A DNA stretch of 64,000 bases from an uncultured bacterium (GTDB lineage: Bacteria; BMS3Abin14), in NCBI GenBank assembly GCA_965603295.1, contig CBFDCL010000001.1, forward strand, positions 506-64,505. Direction: 5' to 3'. Below, piece after piece: positions 4,632-61,958 of the stretch; positions within the stretch are counted from its first letter, which is position 1; every line of letters begins with the position of its first letter. The notes below the pieces were generated by a model. That model worked only from the letters and a program-made list of their open reading frames with translations, searched no databases and was not told the DNA's origin. A program made the translations under genes and the position numbers.

Positions 4632-5450
4632 ATGGAAATCGTTTTCTTTTCGGCCTCCGCATTTTTCCTTTTTCTCGCCACCCTTCACTACCTGCTTTTC
4701 CTGGTTTACAGGAACCCTGTAGTGCCCCGGGTGGCGCGTTTTTCCCTTTTCCTGGCTTTCACGGTCCAGATCGCCTTTTTCGTGGCAAGGTTTATGGGTG
4801 GGGGGATTCCCCTCGGCACTAGTCTGTACGAATCCCTCATCTTTTTCTCCTGGTGCATTATTGCTTCCTACCTCCTTGTCACTGTCCGGTATAAGATCCC
4901 CGCTGTGGGGGCATTTGTCATCCCCGTCGCCTTTATCATTACTGTGGGTGCGGCTCTTTTGCCCAATAAGGGGATCGGCGAGATTCCCCCCGCTCTGAAA
5001 AGTTACTGGCTCTTCATTCATGTTCCCCTGAGTTTTCTGGGAGATGCCATGTTTGCCCTGGCTTTTGCTTCGGGGATCATGTACCTGCTCCAGGAGAGAC
5101 AGCTCAAGGGAAAAAGGCCCGGGGCCTTTTACTACAGGCTCCCCAGCCTGGAGGCTCTGGATTCTTTGAACTACCGGTCCCTGACCATCGGGTTCCCCCT
5201 GCTGACCCTGGGTATCATCACCGGTTCCATCTGGGCGCAATACGCATGGGGGTCCTATTGGCAGTGGGATCCCAAGGAAACCTGGTCGCTGATCACGTGG
5301 CTGATTTATGCCGCTGTCCTGCACGCGCGCATGACGGTGGGATGGCGGGGTCGTAAAGCCGCATGGTTTTCCATTATCGGATTTGCTGCGGTCCTGTTTA
5401 CCTTTCTTGGAGTCAACCTCTTCCTGACCGGCCTGCACTCTTATAACTGA
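4632..5450 (+). CDS. cytochrome c assembly protein, CcsA/ResC family (HemX-like, precedes hemA)
   Basis: 272-aa polytopic membrane protein with the Trp-rich WGSYWQWDPKETWS motif of the CcsA family; position upstream of hemA matches B. subtilis hemX. Confidence 0.75.
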   Translation: MEIVFFSASAFFLFLATLHYLLFLVYRNPVVPRVARFSLFLAFTVQIAFFVARFMGGGIPLGTSLYESLIFFSWCIIASYLLVTVRYKIPAVGAFVIPVAFIITVGAALLPNKGIGEIPPALKSYWLFIHVPLSFLGDAMFALAFASGIMYLLQERQLKGKRPGAFYYRLPSLEALDSLNYRSLTIGFPLLTLGIITGSIWAQYAWGSYWQWDPKETWSLITWLIYAAVLHARMTVGWRGRKAAWFSIIGFAAVLFTFLGVNLFLTGLHSYN

Positions 5451-6730: not shown

Positions 6731-6746
6731 TGCCGACGACATCAAT

Positions 6747-6827
6747 TTCAAAATTCAAATTTCATATTTCAAAAGGTGTACGCGAGTTTCATTTTTTATT
6801 TGAAATTTGAAATGTGAAATCTGAAAT
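6747..6827. repeat. imperfect 28-bp inverted repeat (TTTCAAA/TTTGAAA heptamer arms) in the hemA-hemC spacer
   Basis: Arm 1 is 6747-6774 and arm 2 is 6800-6827, 24/28 complementary; could form a long AU-rich hairpin between hemA stop and hemC RBS. Confidence 0.45.
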
Positions 6828-6846
6828 TATAATCAGGAGGAATTCA

Positions 6847-14140: not shown

Positions 14141-15586
14141 ATGGAACGCGGATCTCGAAAAGGTGGCCGGTCCTCCGGGCGCCTGAAATGGCGCACCATT
14201 ATCATCCCCTTTTCAACCCTCCAGTTCTGGGTCAATTTTTTCATCGTTCTGGCTGTCCTGGGTACGGTCATGGTGGGCGTCTACTACCAGTTCCTGAGCC
14301 CCAAGGCCCAGGCCAGGCGGCTGATCGCGACTGCGGAGGAGCAATTTGACCAGGCTATCGTCCTGGGAGTCAAAGAACTTGCTTTTGAGGACTATCGGAC
14401 AGTCCAGGAGACCCTATTCCAGGCCAGGAAAAACTTCGATGGGCGGAAATACGCCGAGTCCCTCATCCTGGGTGAGCAGACGATGGCCAGCCTGAAAAAA
14501 GCCCTCGAGCGCCTCAGGTCGGATGAATATTTCCGGCGGGAGAGGTCCGCCTCCTTTTCCCACCTGAAGGGGGACATCCAGGTTCAGAAAGCTGGATCCC
14601 TGAACTGGGAGAGTGCCAGGAAGGGGATGAAACTCAGCAAGGGGGACCGTGTCCGGACGAGATCCAGCTCCACTTGTGTTGTTCAGTTCGATGATGGAAG
14701 CCGGCTGACGGTCAAGTCGGATTCACTGGTCCATATTGACGAACTCAGTGAGGATGTCAGAACAAGGACTAAAAATTCGGCCATCAAACTTCTCGTTTCC
14801 GACGTGGAGGCCAGTATCCTCCGGCCCACCGCCAAGGGGTCCCGATTCCTTATCGAGACACCCGGTTCGGTTGCCCAGGTTCGGAAAGCGCGGATGAATA
14901 TCCGCGTTGACGAAAAAAATGGGACGGAATACAGCCTGATCTCCGGAGATGTGTCTGTCAACGCGGGAGGCAGAAACGTCAGCCTGACGGGCGGGGAGGT
15001 AGTGCGCCTTGCCGGAGAGGGAAAAGTGGTGTCCCGGAGGAAGCTTCTTGGAGTACCGGTCCTTCGGAGTCCGCCTAACCTGCACTGGCGCGTCAGCGGT
15101 CGTGAGAAAATGCCGGTGGATTTCCGATGGATAAAGGTTCCCGGCGCCGATGTCTATCATCTCGTGGTAGCCACTGACCGTTATTTTACGAACGTGGTCC
15201 ATGACAACGGCCGCATCGGGAAAACCGCTGCGGCCTTGAATCTGCCCGCGGGGATGTACTACTGGAAAGTTTCTTCCGTCGACCGCCGGGGACGGGAAAG
15301 CCTCTTTTCCCATTTTTCCGTCTTCCGCCTCGTTCAGGACCGGACCGCCCCGTTTTTTGCCATGAACGACCCGATTATCCTCGATGCGGGCGGGGGAACC
15401 CGGGTCTTCCTCACGGGTGCGGTTGAACCGGGCAGCCGTCTCAGCATAAACGGGACGCCTGCCCCCCTTGGCCCGGACGGTTCTTTCCGGATCTTTACTC
15501 GCATGGCCCCCAGGACATCCAGGTTGAATATCGTTGCGGTGGATGCGGCCGGGAACGTTCTTTCCCAGGGAAGGAACCTGAGGTGA
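14141..15586 (+). CDS. membrane-anchored FecR-domain protein with C-terminal beta-sandwich domains
   Basis: N-terminal TM helix; FecR-like block (GDRVRTRSSSTCVVQFDDGSRLTVKSDSLVHIDEL); tightly linked to neighbours (5-bp gap, 4-bp overlap). Confidence 0.55.
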   Translation: MERGSRKGGRSSGRLKWRTIIIPFSTLQFWVNFFIVLAVLGTVMVGVYYQFLSPKAQARRLIATAEEQFDQAIVLGVKELAFEDYRTVQETLFQARKNFDGRKYAESLILGEQTMASLKKALERLRSDEYFRRERSASFSHLKGDIQVQKAGSLNWESARKGMKLSKGDRVRTRSSSTCVVQFDDGSRLTVKSDSLVHIDELSEDVRTRTKNSAIKLLVSDVEASILRPTAKGSRFLIETPGSVAQVRKARMNIRVDEKNGTEYSLISGDVSVNAGGRNVSLTGGEVVRLAGEGKVVSRRKLLGVPVLRSPPNLHWRVSGREKMPVDFRWIKVPGADVYHLVVATDRYFTNVVHDNGRIGKTAAALNLPAGMYYWKVSSVDRRGRESLFSHFSVFRLVQDRTAPFFAMNDPIILDAGGGTRVFLTGAVEPGSRLSINGTPAPLGPDGSFRIFTRMAPRTSRLNIVAVDAAGNVLSQGRNLR

Positions 15587-16539
15587 GAGGCCGCTGGATC
15601 CCCATAGCCCTTCTTTCCGTGCTCATCCTGGTGTCAGGGTGCAAGAGCAAGGCGACGAAGTTTGTCCTGGCACAGAGGATCAACGGGGTTGGTATCGCGC
15701 TCTACACCCAGGGAAACGTGGATAACGCCCTGGAGAGGTTTCAGAAGGCTATCGAATACGCACCCGATTTCGGGTTTGTTAGAAACAATGCCGGGGTGGC
15801 CTACTACCATCTCGGCCAGCTGGACCTCGCTGTCGCCCAGTTTCGCCGCGCGGTGGAGATCGAACCGGAAATGGCGGAGATCCATGGCAACCTCGGGGCT
15901 ACCCTTCTGGTCATGGAGCGTTTCGAGGAAGCCGAGGAGGAGTTGGTGGAAGCACTTCGCCTCGATCCGGACTACCTCCTTGCCTACAGTAACCTCGGTG
16001 TCCTACGTTACCGGACCGGACGGGTTGATCAGGCTATCAGTGTCTATCGTCGGGGTCTTAAGATCGACCCGAGTTTCAACCGGCTCCACCATAACCTCGG
16101 AGAGGCCCTCATGTCCCAGGGCAAGTACGCCGAGGCCGTGAAACATTACAACCATGCCCTGGAACTGAACCCGGACAACTCACGCACCTATAACAATCTG
16201 GCCTGGGCCTATGCCCAGCAGGGAGAGAACATCGAGGACGCGCTGGCCCTTGCCAACGCTGCCCTTGAACAGGATCAGGGAAACGGTTTTTTCTACGACA
16301 CCCTCGGATGGATCCACTTCAAGCAGGGGCAGTTTGATGAGGCCTACCAGGTCATGGCTAAAGCGATTCAGTACCAGCCGGCCATCCCCGAGATCCGTTA
16401 TCACATGGGGGAGATCCTGCGCTGGCAGGGAAAGTATCCGCAGGCTATGGAGGAGTATGGGAGGGTGATTGGGCTTGAGCCTTACGGGAAATGGGCAGAT
16501 AAAGCACAGAAGGCCATCTGGTCAATTAAAGGATTGTAA
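15583..16539 (+). CDS. TPR-repeat lipoprotein
   Basis: Lipobox (LILVSGC) followed by at least eight TPR repeats. Confidence 0.7.
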   Translation: MRGRWIPIALLSVLILVSGCKSKATKFVLAQRINGVGIALYTQGNVDNALERFQKAIEYAPDFGFVRNNAGVAYYHLGQLDLAVAQFRRAVEIEPEMAEIHGNLGATLLVMERFEEAEEELVEALRLDPDYLLAYSNLGVLRYRTGRVDQAISVYRRGLKIDPSFNRLHHNLGEALMSQGKYAEAVKHYNHALELNPDNSRTYNNLAWAYAQQGENIEDALALANAALEQDQGNGFFYDTLGWIHFKQGQFDEAYQVMAKAIQYQPAIPEIRYHMGEILRWQGKYPQAMEEYGRVIGLEPYGKWADKAQKAIWSIKGL

Positions 16540-16560
16540 GAGGGGCGGCGCGCGATAACG

Positions 16561-16815
16561 GGCAATCTGCTGTGTTCTCGGTCGCGCGTGATCCTCGAAG
16601 TACCCGGCAATGTACGTCTCCGGTCCCACGCTCCCTCGGGCCTTGCATCTTACCCATTCTCCCGCGCCGATAAGGGTGTTCCTTTGAAATGTGGCCTTAT
16701 TAGCGCAGCCCTTTACAAATCCTCGACGTATGTCGCCAAAATCCTGAGAGAAAAGTCCTCGGAGATAAGGGTAGTTCGATCAAACTTATCACTTATACAT
16801 AGGACTTGGGACCCA
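16561..16815. repeat. mosaic intergenic element, copy A (modules W 16561-16608, X 16653-16710, Y 16753-16815)
   Basis: Y has nested inverted repeats (AAGTCCT..GATAAG..CTTATC..AGGACTT); X has GCGCCGATAAG..CTTATTAGCGC; W recurs at 33396-33443. Confidence 0.65.
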
Positions 16816-16892
16816 TTAGGAATCCCCGGTGTCAGAGCAGAAGGTCGGTGATTGGTCATTGGTGACTGGCGATTGGAAAGGGAGGGGGTAAG

Positions 16893-17570
16893 GTGGAAAA
16901 GAGGAATAACCTCCCTGTTTTCAAGGGCCTCCCACTCGTCCTGGTGTTCCTCCTGGCTGTTGTCTCCTTCGGGTGTTCGAAAGAGGACGCGAGGCTCCGT
17001 CACGGGTTCGAATCAGGGCGGTACCGTACCATTGTTGCCTTCGGGGATTCCATCGTCGAGGGGTACGGTCAGCCCGAGGGGTGGCCGGAGATCCTCGGCC
17101 GCGAACTTTCCGCCCGGTTCGAAGGTGTCCGCATATTCAACGCGGGCCGTTCGGGGAATACTGCGGCTGACGGGGTGGCAAGGATCGGGAAGGATGTCCT
17201 TGACCGGAAACCGGACCTGGTTCTAATATCCTTCGGCCTCAACGACATGAAGAACGGCGTCTCGGTGCACTCTTTTGCCGAAAACCTGGTGAGTATCATG
17301 GAAAAGGTTTCCGGTTCCGGGGGAACGCCCGTACTGATGACCACGACCCGGCTCCAGAAAGGTGCCGGCAGCCTGGCCAGGGTGAACCCGTCACCCTTTA
17401 ACGATGTTATCCTGAGACTCGCTGACGAAAAAAAGGTGCCCCTCATTGATGTCTGGGGTCAATTCAAGGGATACAACACGGGAACATATCTGATGGACGT
17501 CGCCCATCCCAACGCCGAAGGCTACCGGGTGCTGGCTGAAATAATAAGGGAAGGGCTGGTTGGGGAATAG
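16893..17570 (+). CDS. SGNH/GDSL-family hydrolase lipoprotein
   Basis: Lipobox (SFGCS); GDS motif (AFGDSIVEG), GLNDM block and DxxHP C-terminal motif. Confidence 0.75.
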   Translation: MEKRNNLPVFKGLPLVLVFLLAVVSFGCSKEDARLRHGFESGRYRTIVAFGDSIVEGYGQPEGWPEILGRELSARFEGVRIFNAGRSGNTAADGVARIGKDVLDRKPDLVLISFGLNDMKNGVSVHSFAENLVSIMEKVSGSGGTPVLMTTTRLQKGAGSLARVNPSPFNDVILRLADEKKVPLIDVWGQFKGYNTGTYLMDVAHPNAEGYRVLAEIIREGLVGE

Positions 17571-23299: not shown

Positions 23300-23400
23300 G
23301 TTTCAACCTCCTGAGTGATCCTCGGTGGCGCTGACTCCCGATACTGCGACGGGATCGTTTCTCCGGCAATTTATCACAAAACGAAAGGGGAGGTAGGGAT

Positions 23401-23489
23401 AGAGAATTGAGGATTGAGAATTGAGAACTTAAACCAGTGATTGGTGATTCGTGATTGGAGGAAGGTTTGAGGTTTGATTTTTGAAGTTG
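23401..23489. repeat. composite heptamer element E-H-F: (GAGAATT)4-(GTGATTG)3-(GGTTTGA)3
   Basis: Same module order at 24335-24447, 37322-37402 and 61802-61863, at 54124-54200 as the reverse complement, and partially at 27521-27590 and 52074-52148. Confidence 0.75.
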
Positions 23490-23749
23490 CAGAAAATTCA
23501 CGTTGGATGTTTGACGTTGGACCTCTATTCTTCCCGCGCCCCACGCCCTGAGCTTGTCAAAGGGCGTCCCCTTCGCTAATCTCCCGACTGGGCTCTATGA
23601 CCTCAAACTTCAAACACCAAACCGTTCACTAATTATCAATGACCAATCACCAGTTTTTCTCGTTAAACATTGAACGTTAAACATTAAGCGTGTTTAATAT
23701 AAAATTCTTGCGCAAACATTTCCGCTACATCGGGGCAGGGGAGGATGGG

Positions 23750-24283: not shown

Positions 24284-24334
24284 TCATCGATCACTTCGAG
24301 TCCAAAGTCCAACGCCCAAAGCCCAAAGGGATAG

Positions 24335-24515
24335 AACAATTGAGGATTGAGGATTGAGAATTGAGAATTGAGAAAAAACAGTGATTAGTGATTCGTGATT
24401 GGTGATTGGAAAACGGTTTGAGGTTTGAAGTCTGAGGTTTGAAGTTTTACGTCAGAAGCCAGGATCCATAGGCCAGGAAGAAATTCACATTAAACATTAA
24501 ACAGTAAACGTTAAA
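24335..24515. repeat. composite heptamer element E-H-F followed by an (AAACGTT)n-like tract; direct repeat of 23401-23523 on the other side of hpt
   Basis: E 24335-24371, H 24378-24408, F 24413-24447, N' 24484-24515; preceded by (CCAAAG)n at 24299-24329. Confidence 0.75.
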
Positions 24516-24540: not shown

Positions 24541-25425
24541 TTGAACATACTTTTTTATTTCGGCGTCGTCCTTATCTGGGGGACCACCTGGTTCGCCATT
24601 CTGTTCCAGCTCGGCAAGGTGGATCCCCTTGTCTCGATCATCTACCGCTTTTCCCTGGCTGCGTTGATGCTGATGTTCTACTGCATCCTCACCGGGAGGC
24701 GGATGCGGTTTTCCCTGCGGGACCATCTGTTCATGGCTCTGATGGGAACGTTTCTTTTTTCCCTGAATTACTGGTTGTTCTACGTGGCGGAACTCTATCT
24801 CGCCAGCGGCCTGGTGGCGGTGGTTTTTTCCACGATGGTCATCCTCAACATCCTTTTCGGGGTGGTCTTTATCGGTGCGCCCATACGGCCAAAAGTGGTC
24901 CTGGGAGCCCTTATGGGTCTGGCCGGGATCGCCCTGGTCTTCAGGCCGGAGCTGGCGGCCTTTACCCTGTCGGATAAGGGGTTGTTTGGTCTGCTGCTCA
25001 GCCTTGGAGCCACGATATCGGCGTCACTGGGGAATATCATCTCGGCTCGCAACCAGATGGTGCGGATTCCGGTGATCCAGGCCAACGCCTGGGGGATGAG
25101 CTACGGCGTTCTTTTAATGCTGATCACCGCTCTTCTCACCGGGAAGAAGTTCACCTTCGAGGTCACCGTCAGTTACGTCACATCCCTGTTGTACCTGGCT
25201 TTGTTCGGTACCGTCTTCGCTTTCGGAATGTACCTGACGCTCATCGGGCGAATCGGCGCCGACCGGGCCGCCTATGCGACCCTGCTTTTTCCCATCGTGG
25301 CCCTGGCGCTGTCCATGATGTTCGAGGGGTACCGGGGAAATCCGGGGGCTTTTGGAGGATTTGTCCTGATCCTCGCGGGGAACTTCCTGGCCCTTAGCAG
25401 GATGAAAAAACCCGTTGAGAGTTGA
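24541..25425 (+). CDS. DMT-superfamily (EamA) transporter
   Basis: 10-TM EamA-like profile; probable TTG start. Confidence 0.65.
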   Translation: MNILFYFGVVLIWGTTWFAILFQLGKVDPLVSIIYRFSLAALMLMFYCILTGRRMRFSLRDHLFMALMGTFLFSLNYWLFYVAELYLASGLVAVVFSTMVILNILFGVVFIGAPIRPKVVLGALMGLAGIALVFRPELAAFTLSDKGLFGLLLSLGATISASLGNIISARNQMVRIPVIQANAWGMSYGVLLMLITALLTGKKFTFEVTVSYVTSLLYLALFGTVFAFGMYLTLIGRIGADRAAYATLLFPIVALALSMMFEGYRGNPGAFGGFVLILAGNFLALSRMKKPVES

Positions 25426-25509
25426 GCGTTAAAGGTTGAGGGTTTGTGGTTTGCGGTGATGGGAAAAGTTTTCAGTGCCTCGATGCACCAGTGAACTTGT
25501 GCACTGACC

Positions 25510-25572
25510 CCTCAACTCTCAACCCTCAACTCTCAACCCTCAACTCTCAACCCTCAACTCTCAACCCTTAAC
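25510..25572. repeat. (CTCAACY)7 tandem heptamer array downstream of hcp
   Basis: cctcaactctcaaccctcaactctcaaccctcaactctcaacccttaac. Confidence 0.7.
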
Positions 25573-25581
25573 TTGGAACTA

Positions 25582-27225
25582 TTATTTCCCCAGTGCCTCA
25601 GCCAGGTCCTTGTCCACCTCCCCGATGGGGGCGATGCCGAAGTTGTCCACGAGCACCTGGAGAACGCCGGGCGTGATAAAAGCGGGCAGGGTCGGGCCCA
25701 GTTTGATGTTCCGGATCCCCAGGTGCAGCAGCGTCAGCAGGATGCAAACGGCCTTCTGCTCGTACCAGGACAGGATCATGGACAAGGGAAGGCTGTGAAG
25801 GTCCGTCTCGAAAGCGTCAGCCAGGGCCGATGCGATGCGGATGGCCGAGTAAGCGTCGTTGCATTGTCCAATATCCAGAAGTCGTGGGATGCCGCCGATG
25901 TCACCGAATTCCATCTTGTTAAACCGGTACTTTCCGCACGCCAGGGTAAGGATTACCGTGTCTTCGGGTGCCTTCTCGGCGAACTCGCTGTAGTAGTTGC
26001 GCCCGGGCTTGGCCCCGTCGCATCCTCCTATGAGGAAGAAGTGCCGGATGGCGCCCGATTTTACGGCGTCCACCACCGCCCCTGCAACGCCTAGAACCGC
26101 GTTGTGGCCGAACCCCACAGTGATGTTTTTTGCTTCCATGTCCTCAGCAAAGCCTTCCGATTCAAGGGCAGCCTCGATGACCGGGGAAAAATCGTCATTG
26201 CCAACGTGCCTGACCCCTGGCCAGGCCACGAGGCCCGTGGTAAAGATGCGGGCTTCGTAGCTTTTGCGGGGTTTCTGGATGCAGTTGGTGGTCATGAGGA
26301 TGGCTCCAGGGAACGCATCGAACTCCTTGTGCTGGTCCTGCCAGGCTCCGCCATAATTACCTACCAGGTGACTGTATTTCTTGAGTTCCGGGTAGCCGTG
26401 GCAGGGGAGCATCTCCCCGTGGGTATAGACGTTGATCCCCTTTCCCTTCGTCTGTTTCAGAAGGATTTCCAGATCTTTCAGGTCATGGCCGGAAACGAGG
26501 ATCGCCTTGCCCTTGACCGGCGTGATACGTACCTGGGTTGGTTCCGGGTGTCCGTAAACCCCGGTATTGGCCTCGTCGAGCAGCTCCATGACCCTCAGGT
26601 TGACTTCGCCCACTCTCATGGCCATGGCCACCAGGTCATCCGCCGAATGGTCCGTCGTGAGGTAATCGAGGGCTTCATGGAAAAAGGCGTTTATCCTCTG
26701 GTCAGTTTTCCCGAGAATGAGGGCGTGGTCGGCATAGGCTGCCATACCCTTGAGGCCGTATAAAATGAGTTTTTCGAGACCTGCTGCATCGTCCCCGACA
26801 GCCCGCTGCCGTATGGTGATCCCCACCGCACCGGCCTGGGCGAGGAGTCCGGCTCGGTCCTGGCCGGGGGAGAAGGCGGCTGCTTCGGAAATCTCCTCGG
26901 GTTTTTTCCCTGCCTGTCCGCAGGCGTCCTCGTAAAGTATTCTGGCGCGGTCACGGATTTGGATGCCCTGCCGGATCATGGCCTCGATCCGGTCAGGGTC
27001 GAAGTTCACGTTGGTGACGGTGGTAAACAGCGCTTCGATGACGAAGCGATCGATCGATTGATCCGCGGCCCCCAGTTGCCGTGCCCGATGGGCGTACTGG
27101 CTGATCCCCTGGACTGTGTGGATCAGGAGGTCCTGGAAGTCTGAAGTTTCGTCATCCTTGCCGCACACCCCGAACCTGTCGCATCCGGTCCCATGGGCGG
27201 TCTGCTCGCACTGGTAACAGAACAT
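25582..27225 (-). CDS. hcp: hybrid cluster protein (hydroxylamine reductase)
   Basis: Start [15 protein letters not shown] (N-terminal Cys cluster) with GGAGATAACC RBS; 547 aa; hybrid-cluster ligand regions. The ORF-track N-terminal extension was rejected. Confidence 0.9.
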
Positions 27226-28300: not shown

Positions 28301-28327
28301 ATCATTTGTCGCCATAGTCCAAAGAGA

Positions 28328-28461
28328 TAAGTCCTCAGAGATAAGGGTACTATGCTCAAACTTATCACGTATACTTAGGACTTAGGACCCATTTATCCCA
28401 TTCTCCTGCGCTGATAAACGTATTTTCATGCAAAGCGGCTTATTGGAACCGCTCCTCGGGA
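28328..28461. repeat. mosaic intergenic element, copy B (modules Y 28328-28390, X 28396-28455; order swapped relative to copy A)
   Basis: About 85-90% identity to copy A modules; stems are conserved while loops differ. Confidence 0.65.
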
Positions 28462-28502
28462 ATCCTCACGTACGTCACAGTCCAGACTCCAGATACCAGT
28501 AA

Positions 28503-28955
28503 CTAGACACTCGGAGGAGCGAGCAGGGCTCGCTCCTCCGCATTCGGCAATATCCCGAACAACTGGCCCTCGATAACCGTTTCGTCCCTCTGGTTGACGA
28601 ATATTGCCGAACACTTGACGCGCCCGCGCTCATCCATCTCGTCGATGGTGAGGGTACAGGTTACCGTGTCGCTGAAGTAGACGGGAAGGCGGAAGCGAAA
28701 GTTCATTCCTGAGGCCAGCATGGCAAGCTGGCCCCCGATCTCGGACATGAGACTGCCCACGTGAAGCCCGTGGCAGATCAGACCATCCAAACCTTTTCCC
28801 TTCGCATATTCCCTGTTGGAGTGCACCGGGTTGTGGTCGTTGGAAACATCGGTAAACAGATGGACGTCCTCTCCGGTGAAGGTTCGTGTGACGGAGAAGG
28901 AGTCCCCGACGGTGATTTCCCCCTCAATGAGTCTGCGGCGGATGGTGGCGGTCAT
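28503..28955 (-). CDS. MaoC-like (R)-hydratase, hot-dog fold
   Basis: Hot-dog motifs (NDHNPVHSN, ICHGLH); start trimmed to MTATIRR because the upstream codons are encoded by a heptamer repeat. Confidence 0.6.
   Translation of the reverse strand: MTATIRRRLIEGEITVGDSFSVTRTFTGEDVHLFTDVSNDHNPVHSNREYAKGKGLDGLICHGLHVGSLMSEIGGQLAMLASGMNFRFRLPVYFSDTVTCTLTIDEMDERGRVKCSAIFVNQRDETVIEGQLFGILPNAEERALLAPPSV
28511..28539 (-). terminator. perfect 13-bp GC-rich stem-loop (cggaggagcgagc-agg-gctcgctcctccg) at the 3' end of the MaoC-like gene
   Basis: Exact inverted repeat; lies within the last ~12 codons of the MaoC ORF as read; no strong U-tract follows. Confidence 0.35.
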
Positions 28956-32212: not shown

Positions 32213-32391
32213 TTTCATCACCTCGGTGCGAAAGGCGCAAAGCGCTGGGATGCCCAAAAGGGAAAATCCAGGGATGGGTTGGAAATCTTTGAGGAGACAG
32301 GAGCTTCGATCCCCCCCTCTCCGTGTCTCCGCGTCTCCGTGTCAAACGGTCTAGACAAGAATTAACCTGTCTGTCACATAGAGAACCCCAT

Positions 32392-33294
32392 ATGACCACC
32401 GATCCCCGATCCCATGTACCTCTTTCCGGAGGGGCACTCCTCATCTTAGTGTGCCTCATCTGGGGCGGGAACATGGTTTCCATCAAGTTCAGCAACCAGG
32501 GGGTTCCTCCCATGATTGCTGCCACCCTGAGATCCGTTTTGGCGGCGGTATGTCTGTGGGGTTTTGCGGCACTCAGGGGAAAACGGGTGCTCCTCCGGGG
32601 GGCGGACCTCAAACACGGGATCGTCATAGGGATCCTCTTCGGTCTGGATTTTTTCTTCCTTTATTGGGGAACCGCTTTCACGGTGGCATCCCGGGCCATC
32701 ATTTTCCTTTATACCCACTCCATCTGGGCCGCCATCGGAGCCCATTTCTTTCTCAAGGGAGACCGTCTCACTCCGATGAAAACCGGGGGCCTTCTCCTTG
32801 CATTCCTCGGTGTCGCATCGGTGTTCGGAGTCCGGTCAGAAGGACTCCCCCCGTCCTTCTGGATCGGGGATCTCATGGAGGTTGCCGCCGCCCTGTTCTG
32901 GGCCGCGACCACTCTATATATCAAGAGGGTTGCCAGCACGAGGCCCATTGACCATTACCAGACCCTTTTCGCCCAGCTGCTTTACTCTATTCCCGTTCTG
33001 GCCCTGGGTTGGCTGTTCCTGGACCTGGGCAAGCCGGTGACTCTTGACAGACTTGTCCTCGGGGCCCTGGCCTACCAGATTCTGCTTACGGCATTTTTCA
33101 GCTACGTTCTCTGGTTCTGGATGATTCACACCTACCCGGTGAGCCGTCTTGCCGCCTTTATCTTCCTCGCCCCCCTGTTCGGAGTTCTCCTGGGAGCGGT
33201 TGCTCAGGGGGATCCTATAACGATGCAGTTGATGATGGGGTTGGGGTGTGTCGGTGGAGGCATATATCTCGTAAATAAACCCCAGAAAAGTTAA
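32392..33294 (+). CDS. DMT-superfamily (EamA) transporter
   Basis: 10-TM EamA profile; start at MTTDPRS. Confidence 0.7.
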   Translation: MTTDPRSHVPLSGGALLILVCLIWGGNMVSIKFSNQGVPPMIAATLRSVLAAVCLWGFAALRGKRVLLRGADLKHGIVIGILFGLDFFFLYWGTAFTVASRAIIFLYTHSIWAAIGAHFFLKGDRLTPMKTGGLLLAFLGVASVFGVRSEGLPPSFWIGDLMEVAAALFWAATTLYIKRVASTRPIDHYQTLFAQLLYSIPVLALGWLFLDLGKPVTLDRLVLGALAYQILLTAFFSYVLWFWMIHTYPVSRLAAFIFLAPLFGVLLGAVAQGDPITMQLMMGLGCVGGGIYLVNKPQKS

Positions 33295-33395
33295 CGAGAT
33301 ATATGCCTCCAGTTCCTAGTGTGTGTCTGGACCTGGAAACCAGGAACCAGGTGCAAGATACTGCCCTTCTGCACTCTTGACGGCCGAAAAACAAT

Positions 33396-33443
33396 TAGCA
33401 TCTGCTGCGTTCTCAGTCGCGCGTGATCCTCGAAACACCCGGC
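33396..33443. repeat. module W copy (gcatctgctgcgttctcagtcgcgcgtgatcctcgaaacacccggc)
   Basis: About 43/48 identical to 16561-16608. Confidence 0.6.
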
Positions 33444-33449
33444 TGGGCC

Positions 33450-33944
33450 CTAACGGTTTTTCTCCGTGTCTCCGTGTCCCTGTGTCTTCGCGTCTGACGA
33501 TTTACCCCTTAGAGTCTCGATCTCCACGCGGATGACCACGACATTCTCGAGGTCTATCCCGGGAAAATCATATTTTCGGTCCGAATACTGGCCCATGAGG
33601 ATGGCAAGACCCTTTTTCTTGTCCTCGGGTCCGGTGAGGATGCGGGCTTTGCCTGTGCCGATGATGCTGCGGAATTCGGCCGTCCAGGAACAGGCTTTTT
33701 CGCCCCGGGCCAGCCTGTAATGGGAAACAACGGTGAAACAGATCTCGGGGTTTTTCCCCAGGACATCGATCTTCCGGCCTTCAGGAGCGGAGTGGAAGAA
33801 AAGGGCGTCGTCCCAGTAACCAAAGTTTAACGGAACGACGTAGGGCTTCCCGTCGTCCACCATGGAGAGATAACAGATCTCGCCCCGGCGGAGGATGTCG
33901 ATGAGTTCCTCTTGGGACTCAATTATTTTGTCTTTCCGGCGCAT
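33450..33944 (-). CDS. pyridoxamine 5'-phosphate oxidase-like FMN-binding protein
   Basis: PNPOx split-barrel blocks; the last ~12 codons are encoded by a CTCCGTG repeat tract. Confidence 0.6.
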   Translation of the reverse strand: MRRKDKIIESQEELIDILRRGEICYLSMVDDGKPYVVPLNFGYWDDALFFHSAPEGRKIDVLGKNPEICFTVVSHYRLARGEKACSWTAEFRSIIGTGKARILTGPEDKKKGLAILMGQYSDRKYDFPGIDLENVVVIRVEIETLRGKSSDAKTQGHGDTEKNR

Positions 33945-35870: not shown

Positions 35871-37343
35871 ATGGCCATGAACCGGGGTTTTACCGAAGAG
35901 CCTTCCGGAGATCTTCCGGACCACCTGGCACGAGTGAAAAGCTACGTACTCTCGGTTGGGGAATCCGCAGTTGACATTGCGGTCTCCATCCTGGCCCTCG
36001 TTATTGTGGGGCGTTTCTACGGGCCCGAGGGGATGGGCGTCTACACTTTCCTCATGTCCGTCTTTGTGATTGTTGTTTTCCTGTCGGAAGTCGGTATCGA
36101 CAAATGGATCGAAAAGGAACTGGCATCCGAGGGGCAGATTGATACTTCCCGAATGCTTGCCGAGGCAAAGGGCGCGGTTCTCCTCTCTGGACTGGCGGGC
36201 TGTCTGGCGATGTTGATTTTCGGAGCCTGGGCTTCGAAAAGCCCAACAGTGGCCGGGGGTACCTGGCCGGGGTTTGTTCTCCTTGCCCTTGCCGTGCCTC
36301 TGAACCTCAGGTCAGGGCTTCAGGTGTCGGTGCTCCACGGACAGGGAAAGCCCGGTGAGGCGGCTCGAGCGGGGTTCGTCAAACGCTCTGTTTTTCTGGC
36401 AAGCGTATTTACCCTTGCCTATCTTCGCTTCCGGCCCGAGCTGCTCATGGCTGGTTTTGTTCTGTCCGAGGCGGCATCCCTGGCTTCGGCCAGGAGGCGT
36501 GTCAGGATGCCTTCCATAGGCGCGGTTCTCAAGAGGATCCGTGGGGTCGGGGAAACGTTCCGGATGGGCTCACAGTATTATTTTACTCACGAGGCGCTCA
36601 AGGTCCTCTTCTTCGTGGATTTTTTTATCCTTGGGTTGTTCGTGTCTGCCACTCAAGAGGGGTCTTATGCCCAGGCCTCGGTTCTGGCCCGTTTCTTCCT
36701 GCTCATCCCTCTGGGGGCGGCTCCCCTTTATCGGGTCAAAGTGTACAGGGCTTCGGGTTCCGGGCAAGGAGAGATCTTTTCCGATTCCGCCCGGACCGCA
36801 GCCAGGCTTTTCACTCTTCACTCGATGGCGGGGTTGTTGTTCCTGCTCTACTTTCCCCATGTTCTCAGGGTCGTATTCAGGGTCCAAGGAGATACACCTG
36901 TTTTTTTCCAGGTTTTTTCCCTCCTTCTCCCGGGTTTGCTTTTATTTGCTTCCACTCTTGTTCTTGAACCGTTCTTCGGTGCCAGTGGGCGGGAAGAAGA
37001 CCTTAACCGTATCGCCCTGAAGGTTTTCATCCTCAACGCGTTCCTGAACTCCTACCTGATCCCTTACGCGGGGGTCCTCGGCGCCGCAACCGCTACGACC
37101 ATCTCACTCTCCGTGTATTTTGTCCTGTTTTCCAGGGAACTCGGGGAAATCGGTACCATTCCCCTTGGCTCTTACCTCCTGAGCGGGATCCTGGTGTATG
37201 TCAGCTACCATGTTTTATTTCCGGTTCAACCTTATCTTTTCATTGTCTTGCCCCTGGTTTTCGTCGTCCTGCCGGTCTTGTTCTGGGTGTTGGGTTTATT
37301 CGGTCAGGGGCAGGGAAAAAGACAATTGAGAATTGAGAGTTAA
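35871..37343 (+). CDS. polysaccharide biosynthesis protein / Wzx-like flippase (MOP superfamily)
   Basis: About 14 TM helices; the C-terminal 7 codons and stop are supplied by a GAGAATT repeat. Confidence 0.6.
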   Translation: MAMNRGFTEEPSGDLPDHLARVKSYVLSVGESAVDIAVSILALVIVGRFYGPEGMGVYTFLMSVFVIVVFLSEVGIDKWIEKELASEGQIDTSRMLAEAKGAVLLSGLAGCLAMLIFGAWASKSPTVAGGTWPGFVLLALAVPLNLRSGLQVSVLHGQGKPGEAARAGFVKRSVFLASVFTLAYLRFRPELLMAGFVLSEAASLASARRRVRMPSIGAVLKRIRGVGETFRMGSQYYFTHEALKVLFFVDFFILGLFVSATQEGSYAQASVLARFFLLIPLGAAPLYRVKVYRASGSGQGEIFSDSARTAARLFTLHSMAGLLFLLYFPHVLRVVFRVQGDTPVFFQVFSLLLPGLLLFASTLVLEPFFGASGREEDLNRIALKVFILNAFLNSYLIPYAGVLGAATATTISLSVYFVLFSRELGEIGTIPLGSYLLSGILVYVSYHVLFPVQPYLFIVLPLVFVVLPVLFWVLGLFGQGQGKRQLRIES

Positions 37344-37768
37344 GAATTTCAGCCGGTGACTGGTGATTGGTGACTGGGGAACGGTTTGATGTTTGAAGTT
37401 GGATAACCGCGCTGTCATCGCGAGCTGGCATCTGCGCGAAGCGATCCCATAGTGAAGGTTGAAAATCGAGCCTTGGACAGGCTCAGGCCGGGGGAGTTGA
37501 AAATTGAGGATGAACGACAGTGGATCTTTGGGGTCAGAGACCAGCTTTTCGGAAGCCCCAATCCGGATGTCTAAAGGCCAGGGAAAACGGTGATTAGTGA
37601 TTGGTGAATGGAAGATGATGATCAGTTTTACGTTTGAAGTTCAATCTTGGATTCTGAATCTATTCCTTCTTCAACTTTCCACCTTTTTTCTTCCTGTTCT
37701 GTTCACCATTCCCAGTGTTTAACTTCAAACCCGAACATCAACTTCCAAACTCTCAAACTCTCAAACTC

Positions 37769-51062: not shown

Positions 51063-52086
51063 CAGGTTCCCGGATTCCCTTCCGGGGTGTTCCCGTTTCC
51101 CCCGAATATTCTGCCTTCTGATCACGGTTATCTTTCTGGTTTCCGGGTGTTCCGGTTCGCGAAAGCCCGTTCGTGAGACCCGCTTCCTGATGGGGACCCT
51201 CGTCGATGTGATCGCCTACGGGGACCAGGAAACGGCCGCCGAGGCGGTGGGCCGGGCCTTCGAAAGGATGGCGGAGGTGGAAGAGGCATCTCATAGTAAG
51301 GGCTTGGGTTCCCTTCTTGGGGCCATCAGGGACGGAAAGGGTGCCCTTCTTACCGGTGATGCCGCTCTCGTCATGGAAACGGCCCTGTCCGTCGCTGTGG
51401 CCAGTTCGGGGGCTTTTGATCCCACTCTGGGGGAACTGGTGGAACTGTGGGGGATCGCCACCGGTCATCCGGAAGTGCCCGATGACGAGAAGATCAAAGA
51501 GGCCCTTTCCCGTTCCGGGTACCAAAGGATCCCGGAGACAGGGTGCTGTCCCGATGGGATGAAGGTGTGGCTGGACCTGGGCGGTGTGGCCAAAGGGTAC
51601 GCGGTGGATGAAGCGGTCAAAGTGCTGAAGGAGGCGGGGGTCCCCTCGGGGATCGTTAACGCGGGCGGGGATCTGAGGTCCTTCGGTCAAAAGCCGGGGA
51701 AAATTCCCTGGAAGATCGGGATCCAGAATCCCGATGACCCTCAGGATCTGGCGGGGGTCCTGGATGTTAACGAGGTCTCCGTCGCGACCTCGGGGGATTA
51801 TCAGCGATACTTTGAGGTGAGCGGTGTCCGGTATCACCATATCCTCGATTCGACCACCGGACATCCCGCACGGTCAGGGGTCCGCAGTGTGACAGTCCTC
51901 ACGGATGACTGCGCTCTTGCCGATGCCCTGGCCACAGCCGCTTTCGTGATGGGTCCCGAAAGGGGCCTGGGTCTGCTGGAGGCCTGGGAAGATGTGGAGG
52001 GGATCATCATTTCCCAGGACGGTACCTATCACCTGACGTTGGGCATAGGAACGAAGATCCCGTTTGAGAAGCGAATTGAGGATTGA
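51052..52086 (+). CDS. apbE: FAD:protein FMN transferase ApbE (lipoprotein)
   Basis: Lipobox (LVSGCSG); ApbE motifs (DLGGVAKGYAVD, GGD); the stop codon lies inside a GAGGATTGAG repeat. Confidence 0.8.
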   Translation: MMIDRFPDSLPGCSRFPRIFCLLITVIFLVSGCSGSRKPVRETRFLMGTLVDVIAYGDQETAAEAVGRAFERMAEVEEASHSKGLGSLLGAIRDGKGALLTGDAALVMETALSVAVASSGAFDPTLGELVELWGIATGHPEVPDDEKIKEALSRSGYQRIPETGCCPDGMKVWLDLGGVAKGYAVDEAVKVLKEAGVPSGIVNAGGDLRSFGQKPGKIPWKIGIQNPDDPQDLAGVLDVNEVSVATSGDYQRYFEVSGVRYHHILDSTTGHPARSGVRSVTVLTDDCALADALATAAFVMGPERGLGLLEAWEDVEGIIISQDGTYHLTLGIGTKIPFEKRIED

Positions 52087-52324
52087 GAATTGAGAGTTGA
52101 GGATTGAGAAAAAAGTTTGAAAGTTTGAGAGTTTGAGGTTTGAAGTTGTGAATTCAGGAGACAGGAGCCAGAATCCAGAAGGCAGCATTTCTTTGGCCTT
52201 TGGGCATTGGGCTTTGGGCTGTTCTTCCAATCACCAATCACTGGTCACAAATCACCGAAATTTTCTTGGATCTTGGATCTGTTTTGAAATTTGGAATTTG
52301 AAATTGCCTTTTGAGATTTGAGAT

Positions 52325-56565: not shown

Positions 56566-56732
56566 CTTCCCACCCTAAGTGACCCGTACGGGAAAATCAA
56601 GGGGGCTTGTCATTTTCACCGTGGCTTGAAGTGGCGGGAATCCCGCCACTTCAAGCCCTCAAACTTCAAACAGAGTTCTCCACGTTTAACGTTGAACGTT
56701 GAACGTGATTCCAACTTCAAACTCTCAAACTC

Positions 56733-61757: not shown

Positions 61758-61958
61758 TCTCCGGAGTGCAGGATATAGAGTGCAGTGTGCAGAGGGTAAG
61801 AACAATTGAGAATTGAGGATTGAGAATCACGGTTTGAAGTTTGAGGTTTTGAGTTTGAAGTTGCCGATTTGCTTTGTCTCTGCACTTTACACCCTGCACT
61901 CTGCACTCAATTCTCTGGACTCTGAACCCTGAACTCTGAACTCTGAACCGGCCTTTTT

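Follow-up and report, generated by a model that had tools for sequence, protein, structure and literature searches.

What are the modules that recur in three intergenic spacers of an uncultured bacterium of the BMS3Abin14 lineage, and are they units in their own right? In a 64,000-nt stretch of its genome (GenBank assembly GCA_965603295.1, contig CBFDCL010000001.1, forward-strand positions 506–64,505; hereafter the window), an earlier note had described three such modules, W, X, and Y, and proposed a family of selected structured RNAs or of miniature inverted-repeat transposable elements (MITEs). The modules lie at locus A, between genes for a TPR lipoprotein and a GDSL esterase, at locus B, between the MaoC and SRAP genes, and at locus C, between the PNPOx and EamA genes; their positions and the flanking TPR, MaoC, SRAP, EamA, and PNPOx genes are as that note gave them. 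The main feature of this family is nevertheless one that it overlooked, namely a long hairpin of approximately 125 nt at locus A, built from W together with a neighboring stretch to which no module had been assigned.

A Long Hairpin at Locus A

The spacer at locus A (16540–16892) is bounded by the TPR lipoprotein gene (15583–16539; Pfam TPR) and the GDSL esterase gene (16893–17570), and the long hairpin starts about 6 nt past the TPR stop codon, antisense to both neighboring genes. Read on the minus strand, W forms its 3′ arm, and the sequence between W and X (16609–16652) supplies the apex and the 5′ arm. The structure is rod-like, with about 33 canonical pairs broken by conserved tandem G·A/A·G loops, and two covariance models score 16540–16672 at 153.7 and 144.2 bits. 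The minus-strand RNA of 16535–16680 has a minimum free energy (MFE) of −59.7 kcal/mol (z = −2.8), whereas the plus strand of the same stretch reaches only −48.5 kcal/mol (z = +0.87) and adopts a different fold. Among the loci retrieved from relatives (designated by L numbers), L044 (GCA_964635735.1; SRAP 79% identical) contains a syntenic MaoC–SRAP spacer that aligns to both A and B, and its positions 1020–1155 form the same extended hairpin (−48.9 kcal/mol, z = −6.4; opposite strand −34.8 kcal/mol).

Six-frame translation showed no reading frame conserved among A, B, and L044. The plus-strand frame following the TPR stop is open for 103 codons (16540–16848), across W, X, and Y, and is not open in B or L044; it is probably a product of chance in GC-rich DNA.

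The Hairpin Covaries and Is Selected in One Strand

Comparison of just two sequences, window locus A and L044, aligned with MAFFT and analyzed with RNAalifold, gave 33 pairs, 11 of which have changed on both sides and none of which is broken. A four-sequence alignment retained pairing in all 110 of 110 pair cells, with double changes at 16 pairs, and in the seven-sequence alignment A6 pairing holds for 97.4% of 196 pair cells, with double, compensatory changes at 21 of the 33 pairs. Partners that were slid against each other in the seven-sequence alignment paired in 31–49% of cells, and none of 500 shuffles reached the observed values. It should be noted that the alignments used for the pair counts were fitted to the model, which favors structure, but the two-sequence MAFFT/RNAalifold result and the separate MFE folds agree with them. 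The covariation extends to the hairpin termini, where columns 8–12 and 134–138 covary as GC, CG, UA, and AU types, and in the four intact copies the common hairpin fold has z values from −2.8 to −7.1.

These four copies also reveal which strand carries the structure. Their 132 pair cells consist of 117 Watson–Crick and 15 G·U pairs, the latter spread over nine different pair positions, with no A·C and no other mismatches. Two 2×2 internal loops are 5′-GA/5′-GA in every copy, and two further 2×2 loops are GA/GA in some copies and Watson–Crick paired (CC/GG or CG/CG) in others. The sense strand is the more stable by 11–20 kcal/mol with RNA parameters and by 4–7 kcal/mol with DNA parameters, because the complementary strand acquires UC/UC and A·C mismatches. 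Given these strand-restricted pairs, loops, and stabilities, the structure is therefore selected in one particular single strand, which is the minus strand at all three loci of the window.

Table 1. Positions of the hairpins, their fragments, and other repeats in the window and in loci retrieved from relatives.
Feature	Position	Strand	Remarks
Long hairpin, locus A	16540–16672	minus	Subfamily alpha, intact; outermost pairs 16547/16668; apex GTAC-ATTGCCGG-GTAC at ~16603–16618
Module W, locus A	16561–16608	minus	Long-hairpin 3′ arm in minus-strand reading; ~columns 65–112 of alignment A4
Module X, copy A	16651–16712	minus	Linear leader ending in GGGAGAATGGG; overlaps hairpin base
Junction motif J, copy A (GGCGACATACGTCGAGGATTT)	16717–16737	minus	Like first ~20 nt of hairpin 3′ arm; fused to X
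Module Y, copy A	16731–16817	minus	Begins AATGGG on minus strand
Module Y, copy B	28307–28393	minus	Directly upstream of true SRAP start (28300); co-oriented with MaoC and SRAP
Module X, copy B	28395–28449	minus	Leader ahead of GAGAATGGG start of Y
Junction motif J, copy B (GTGACGTACGTGAGGATTCCCGAGGAGCG)	28450–28478	minus	Cut-down hairpin 3′ arm; 24/25 identical to L044 1089–1113
Half copy, locus C	33396–33446	minus	Long-hairpin 3′ arm only; 1 nt past PNPOx stop; co-oriented with PNPOx
Long hairpin, L048	9517–9648	minus	105–140 bits; TPR–GDSL spacer, third species
Partial units, L048	9679–9749 and 9763–9873		
Long hairpin, L049	1–90		Cut by contig end; A-locus orthologue in GCA_964635735.1
Long hairpin, L050	5037–5158		~40–41 bits; DUF554–ABM spacer, GCA_029210965.1
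Interrupted copy, L050-1	~4693–4972		
Long hairpin, L059	3715–3847		Intact; 121 bits; PNPOx–EamA spacer, fifth genome
16-nt block CCCCGGTGTCAGAGCA	16824–16839; L048 9932–9947; L049 131–146	plus (window)	Identical in three species; upstream of GDSL (or MgtC–GDSL) genes
Heptamer arrays, examples	95–182, 1376–1472, 6744–6828, 23377–23490, 24317–24445		
Heptamer arrays, further examples	25414–25601, 37296–37406, 52046–52153, 61764–61949		

Homologues and Subfamilies

Further copies were found with the covariance models R1 and R2 in the window and in the retrieved loci, and homologues, four of them intact and several partial, are present in four other species, in TPR–GDSL, MaoC–SRAP, DUF554–ABM, and PNPOx–EamA spacers, which bears out the dispersed repeat family that had been proposed. 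Three subfamilies, alpha, beta, and gamma, are distinguished by their basal stems, and each occurs in more than one species and at different spacers. Alpha contains the window A copy, L049, L048-2, and L050-2, with 86/90 identical positions between A and L049, 33/34 between A and L048-2, and 44/49 between L048-2 and L050-2, which occupy different loci in different species. L048-1, L050-1, and L059 form beta (45/52 for L048-1 versus L050-1), L059 having been placed there by eye, outside the pairwise comparison, on the basal and 3′-arm sequence it has in common with L048-1; gamma is made up of L044 and L048-3, again from different loci and different species (47/52). Subfamily identity between species is 87–97% overall and 87–90% at non-orthologous loci. 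The repeats are thus far better conserved than neutral sites, since third-codon-position identity of the flanking genes in the same species pairs is only 54–69%.

The repeated unit is the hairpin alone, the flanks being unrelated between copies, with no shared promoter and no T-run. Target-site duplications, a mark by which the earlier note would have recognized a MITE, are not consistently present: the longest flanking direct repeats of the four intact copies are 0, 2, 0, and 5 nt. Four units lie no more than 15 nt from a stop codon and two lie 17–24 nt ahead of a start codon; A, L048-1, L048-3, and L050-1 are antisense to their neighboring genes, and L044, L050-2, B, and C/L059 are in sense orientation. 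Occupancy varies among relatives: the MaoC–SRAP spacer is 52 nt long and empty in L047 (SRAP 78% identical), the element is missing in L045, and the DUF554–ABM spacer is occupied only in L050. Units are also nested, with about 150 nt of other hairpins inserted at the apex of L050-1 and a small hairpin, GTCACGCCGCTGGCG(T/G)GA, replacing the center of both L048-2 and L050-2.

No additional copy of any module is present in the 64-kb window. Metagenome contigs of the same organism (JGI, ENA, and Logan; marine-sediment-type) carry identical elements, and the same-species contigs L001–L014, which are identical or differ at two sites, both outside the hairpin, are uninformative because they are nearly identical. 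The nearest named relatives by Ffh are bacterium BMS3Abin14 (65%) and Deferrimicrobiaceae (58%). In L012, L013, L014, L006, L034, and L049, independent contigs belonging either to this organism or to GCA_964635735.1, the contig end falls inside W, Y, or the long hairpin, which is consistent with breaks of the assembly graph at repeats.

Modules X, J, and Y and the Half Copy at Locus C

Within the window, the two W sequences (16565–16608 and 33400–33443) are 91% identical over 44 nt (blastn E = 3e-10), and the two Y sequences are 85% identical over 87 ungapped nucleotides (16731–16817 and 28307–28393; repeat family D15), with a blastn core of 71 nt at 87% (E = 2e-14). For X, the best local match between copies A and B is 21 nt at 90% (E = 0.27 taken alone) and the global comparison gives 42/58 identical positions (~72%); we regard the copies as homologous because they are collinear with Y and recur in two other species. 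At locus C only the 3′ arm remains, and the covariance-model match is correspondingly weak (20.5–21.9 bits, with many 5′-side pairs broken). The copy in the orthologous PNPOx–EamA spacer of L059 is intact and is oriented the same way.

Module X is a linear leader of about 45 nt whose last bases, GGGAGAATGGG in every case, already belong to the start of a hairpin. This hairpin is of the Y type in B, and in A, L048, and L049 it is of the W type. Its conserved core, GCCGCTTTnCAAAGGAACACnCTTATCGGnGCGGGAGAATGGG, was recovered by nhmmer and alignment in four copies (A, B, L048, and L049). The GATAAG/CTTAT stem previously taken as a conserved structure of X is degraded in copy B (ATAAA for ATAAG, with a different MFE fold) and lost in the L048 and L049 orthologues. 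The J motif (CGTACGTGAGGATT...) stands ahead of X in A, B, and L048 (L048-3). X-plus-hairpin units thus come after truncated hairpins, and the X–Y order in A and the Y–X order in B follow from this; the permuted order noted before is real, but a mosaic in which hairpin units are variously whole, truncated, or nested describes it better than a tandem or permuted unit.

Module Y is a second hairpin type, which likewise starts with GAATGGG. In L044, positions 918–1022 form an intact Y-type palindrome of about 95 nt (GAATGGGA...TCCCATTC) with a 13-bp GATAAGcGATAAG stem (−43.9 kcal/mol, z = −7.1). The stems AAGTCCT/AGGACTT and GATAAG/CTTATC, on which the claim of a selected secondary structure had been founded, are present and unchanged in both window copies, and none of the 13 differences between these copies touches the 26 stem bases (hypergeometric P = 0.006, a post hoc value for stems picked from conserved sequence). 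A, B, and L044, the three Y copies, do not differ in the inner stem; in L044 the outer stem keeps five of seven pairs, four of them only as minus-strand G·U, with two broken. No double change occurs in the Y stems across the three copies, L044 being the sole outside homologue. Folding of the window Y sequences yields z values between −1.07 and +0.31, whichever strand is taken (among them +0.31 and −0.75 for the two copies), and neither Y nor X exceeds shuffled sequence in stability. The strong support for a selected secondary structure lies in the long hairpin with its 21 of 33 compensated pairs, and not in the stems of Y.

The window Y copies are decayed remnants of the hairpin that is intact only in L044, the outer part of the palindrome having been lost. 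They are 78–85% alike but only 48–55% like the orthologous Y of L044, a pattern that suggests intragenomic copying or conversion. The A-locus spacer of L049 lacks Y. In the window it lies 7–93 nt before the SRAP start and 76–162 nt before the GDSL start. The longest SRAP open reading frame (ORF) begins at 28315 on the minus strand (MATNDMCGRY...), and the 223-aa database protein P0001 begins at MCGRY (28300), which we take as the true start because Cys2 of SRAP is catalytic; the longer start in several metagenome gene calls is probably wrong. A search for the exact Y pattern GATAAGGGTA-N4-10-CAAACTTATC in a genome collection that lacks the source genome gave eight matches in unrelated taxa, with about eight expected by chance (estimate).

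Origin and Possible Function of the Hairpins

We rate most highly, though at about even confidence, the explanation that these elements are a REPIN/ERIC-like family of lineage-specific, strand-specific, noncoding intergenic hairpin repeats of which W, X, and Y are fragments, because their anatomy and dynamics match those of known palindromic intergenic repeats. From the observed structure, strand specificity, dispersal, decay products, and above-neutral conservation we infer a copying mechanism in which hairpin-competent copies would be duplicated or converted into new intergenic sites, as are REPINs and ERIC-type repeats. What is selected would be the single-stranded hairpin, most likely as single-stranded DNA (ssDNA) rather than RNA, recognized by an enzyme presumably encoded elsewhere. 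Older copies would then decay, leaving half units such as locus C, stubs of arms such as J, and eroded hairpins such as the window Y copies, and units may become nested or fused, giving rise to mosaics.

Several observations weigh against a REPIN/ERIC-like origin. No transposase, RAYT, integrase, or reverse transcriptase was found in the 64-kb window or the retrieved loci; the window genes with a Pfam match are all housekeeping genes, and about ten ORFs have no match. Copies are sparse: the 64 kb of the window contain a single intact one, and 21 kb of the relative L055 contain none. The copies at the A locus in three species and at the C locus in two are syntenic, which also fits a host function. 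Target-site duplications are not consistent, no excision or insertion polymorphism was seen among strains, and in the metagenome collection the exact Y pattern was matched by copies A and B of this organism and otherwise only by chance. The G·U pairs and tandem G·A loops fit RNA at least as well as ssDNA. Finally, the 96% identity between the window and L049, with a 67-nt identical run, lies at a contig end and may reflect an assembly chimera.

A structured RNA transcribed from the sense strand and used by the host, acting as a small or antisense RNA or in cis from a 5′ or 3′ untranslated region, kept at particular loci by purifying selection in a few paralogues, is possible but less probable; as a cis element it could be a barrier to RNase III or an exonuclease, or a protein-binding rod. 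Strand-specific G·U pairs, tandem sheared G·A loops, and the exchange of GA/GA for Watson–Crick pairs are classic patterns of RNA helices, X and the hairpin are conserved together, and the same spacer is occupied in three species (A) and in two (C) with element identity of 96–97% against 54–58% at third codon positions of the neighbors. The position of four units within 15 nt of a stop codon and of two units 17–24 nt before a start would also suit it. The orientation of the copies, however, is mixed (about four sense and four antisense) although the same strand keeps the structure, so that not every copy can be accounted for by a role inside the mRNAs of the neighbors; the unit comes with no conserved promoter or terminator, close relatives differ in whether they have a copy and in whether it is truncated or nested, and Rfam gives no match even at E up to 10. 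The rod of about 125 nt might represent a new class of strand-specific structured nucleic acid, either an RNA kept by the host or an ssDNA substrate of a recombinase, which we hold to be rather unlikely. As RNA it would be a protein-binding or RNase-processed regulatory rod at fixed loci, its spaced tandem sheared G·A pairs serving as a recognition surface; as ssDNA it would be acted on by a new kind of recombinase, specific to hairpins, from a candidate phylum-level lineage. Conservation across species far above that of synonymous sites would be explained in both cases.

The remaining explanations fare worse. A classical MITE, that is, a deletion derivative of an insertion sequence (IS) with a DDE transposase, moved as double-stranded DNA (dsDNA) by way of conserved terminal inverted repeats (TIRs) and leaving target-site duplications, would agree with small, noncoding, palindromic, dispersed intergenic elements in both orientations, and with the contigs of several assemblies that break inside the element. 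It is very unlikely all the same, because the termini covary instead of being conserved: GGCGCGGGAG, GGCCGCCAAG, GGCTCACAAG, and GGCTCGCTAG differ by subfamily and only their complementarity is kept, so that a strict use of the term MITE lacks support. The conserved part is the internal loops, the reverse of what is expected for TIRs bound by a transposase; target duplications are inconsistent, no parent IS was found, and transposition of dsDNA would have no use for the strand asymmetry. That the GATAAG/CTTATC palindromes of X and Y are dsDNA sites for a transcription factor, or duplicated promoter pieces for SRAP and GDSL, is highly improbable. Both Y copies do lie upstream of a gene start and their inner 6-bp half-sites are invariant in three Y copies, but half-sites 15 nt apart within a larger hairpin are atypical of an operator, Y is missing upstream of the same genes in L049, L048, L047, and L045, the X palindrome is not conserved, and no sigma-70-like promoter is predicted there. 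Chance similarity or neutral segmental duplication, with neither structure nor family, could appeal to the mere two copies per module in the window and to Y and X folds no stabler than shuffles; it is hardly credible, being already contradicted by the hairpin homologues in four species, and it is at odds with BLAST E values of 2e-14 and 3e-10 and with covariation far above the controls.

A poorly described uncultured lineage gains a well-supported structured noncoding element, with 21 covarying pairs, strand specificity, and G·A motifs, for which a covariance model exists. If REPIN-like, the hairpins point to a mobilizing enzyme still to be found; if RNAs, they add a new motif, one that is unusual for its series of tandem G·A pairs. 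They also account for contig breaks in several metagenome assemblies of this organism, and illustrate that modules spotted by eye can be the arms and remnants of larger palindromes, as they are here.

Other Features of the Window and Its Relatives

The block CCCCGGTGTCAGAGCA (table 1) lies outside the repeat family and occurs once in the window, with heptamer arrays after it; it may serve as a regulatory site particular to this locus. Tandem heptamer arrays (TTCAAAC, TTGAGAA, GTGATTG, CTCAACC, and others) are dense in nearly every spacer of the window, are often inverted across a spacer, and could pair as long stems (25414–25444 with 25521–25565, and 61764–61799 with 61887–61922); similar arrays of other heptamers occur in the relatives L045, L049, and L048. 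Intergenic direct repeats of heptamers are abundant in Beggiatoaceae and cyanobacteria (PMC4679880), and in the literature we found no description of such arrays for the present lineage.

A perfect 17-bp palindrome at 56623–56657 (GGCTTGAAGTGGCGGGA/TCCCGCCACTTCAAGCC) has the core TCCCGCC...GGCGGGA, which is also present in GC-rich hairpins nested in L048-3 (TCCCGCCTGTGGCGGGA) and L050-2 (TCCCGCCATCGGCGGGA); these hairpins may constitute a separate small REP-like family. A 21-nt inverted repeat with 95% complementarity (TGGAGGCATATATCTCGTAAA / TTAACGAGATATATGCCTCCA) spans the EamA stop codon (33292–33294) at 33255–33311 and resembles a terminator hairpin with no clear T-run. At 33453–33494, tandem repeats of 8 nt (TCTCCGTG, plus strand) encode the C-terminal tail of the PNPOx-family ORF, which extends into repeat DNA and stops 1 nt short of the half hairpin; 32310–32351 holds a related array. 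Over the 3′ end of the minus-strand MaoC gene (stop 28503–28505) lies a GC-rich inverted repeat at 28512–28540 (GGAGCGAGC AGG GCTCGCTCC) with no T-run. In L059, a gene of the 23S-rRNA-IVS / bAvd four-helix-bundle family (2421–2783) adjoins the PNPOx gene, with no reverse transcriptase nearby.

Comparison with Known Systems

A search of Rfam 15, suggested in the earlier note, gave no match in the window at the gathering score, and none at E up to 10 for 16520–16900 or the L048 spacer; the single match in L044, to sR33, stayed at chance level (14.9 bits, where the gathering score is 37). No terminator-like site was found at the hairpin in the window, L048, or L049, the 3′ flanks of the intact copies reading GCCCCTC, GATATTC, GTTATTA, and GCTATTA. 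No conserved promoter-like sequence lies upstream of the copies; a promoter scan returned one sigma-70-like site inside X, in L049 only, and nothing consistent. Plasmid and phage records held no similarity beyond one 36-nt chance match in a Pseudomonas phage, and four pattern matches in viral contigs were not confirmed by the covariance model. Several resemblances were discarded: a LexA/SOS box upstream of SRAP and a sigma-54 promoter in X and CCCCGGTGTCAGAGCA were checked by eye and misfit in spacing, and GAGAACACAG as loop B of a hairpin ribozyme and the L044 apex (AUGAUGA ... CUGA) as C/D boxes both fail on architecture, on absence of the motif from other copies, and on Rfam.

Integron attC sites are imperfect palindromes of 57–141 nt past ORFs, in which the structure of one strand is conserved rather than the sequence. 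The hairpins described here are likewise imperfect palindromes with structure conserved in one strand, but the ends of the intact copies lack RYYYAAC/GTTRRRY cores (either strand, direct reading), their orientation is mixed, and the window contains neither an integrase nor a cassette array. The Correia/NEMIS MITEs of Neisseria are small, nonautonomous, palindromic intergenic repeats that form long RNA hairpins, a general anatomy that our elements share; they differ in having conserved TIRs and target duplications, neither of which is seen here.

The ERIC/IRU elements, to which YPAL is related, are imperfect palindromes of about 127 bp that form a single long hairpin, lie between genes in either orientation, are strikingly conserved between species, and can carry insertions inside the palindrome; to our knowledge they have no known transposase. 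All of these features of anatomy, from length and intergenic position to cross-species conservation and internal insertions, recur in the present family, which differs by belonging to another phylum-level lineage and by its documented strand-specific G·A/G·U pattern. No sequence similarity to ERIC or to other E. coli repeats emerged from a distant-mode blastn search of 5,426 complete E. coli genomes.

The BIMEs of E. coli are intergenic mosaic clusters of a few modules in varying order and orientation, often past stop codons (PMC3733652). They are composed of 20–40-bp REPs and short linkers, whereas the mosaics here consist of long hairpins, truncated arms, and a leader of about 45 nt. REP families tagged GTAG and CGTC have been surveyed (PMC3733652). 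The ends of our hairpins, GGC...GCC, carry no such tag, and they differ further from REPINs in that their arms are not self-complementary short REP palindromes, in that the conserved parts are internal tandem G·A loops and not terminal REP cores, in the low copy number seen here, and in the absence of a RAYT gene from the window and the retrieved loci. REPINs, which are mobilized by RAYTs, for instance in Pseudomonas fluorescens SBW25, are noncoding extragenic hairpins, 71 or 110 bp long, in which compensatory changes are frequent and from which half units, or singlets, arise by decay; they have been proposed to act as hairpins of ssDNA or mRNA (PMC3116915). In the size range of 70–110 nt, in subfamilies particular to a lineage, and in clustered units, they resemble the family described here, which presents the same combination of one long hairpin, double changes at 21 of 33 pairs, a half copy at 33396–33446, and the arm stubs J.

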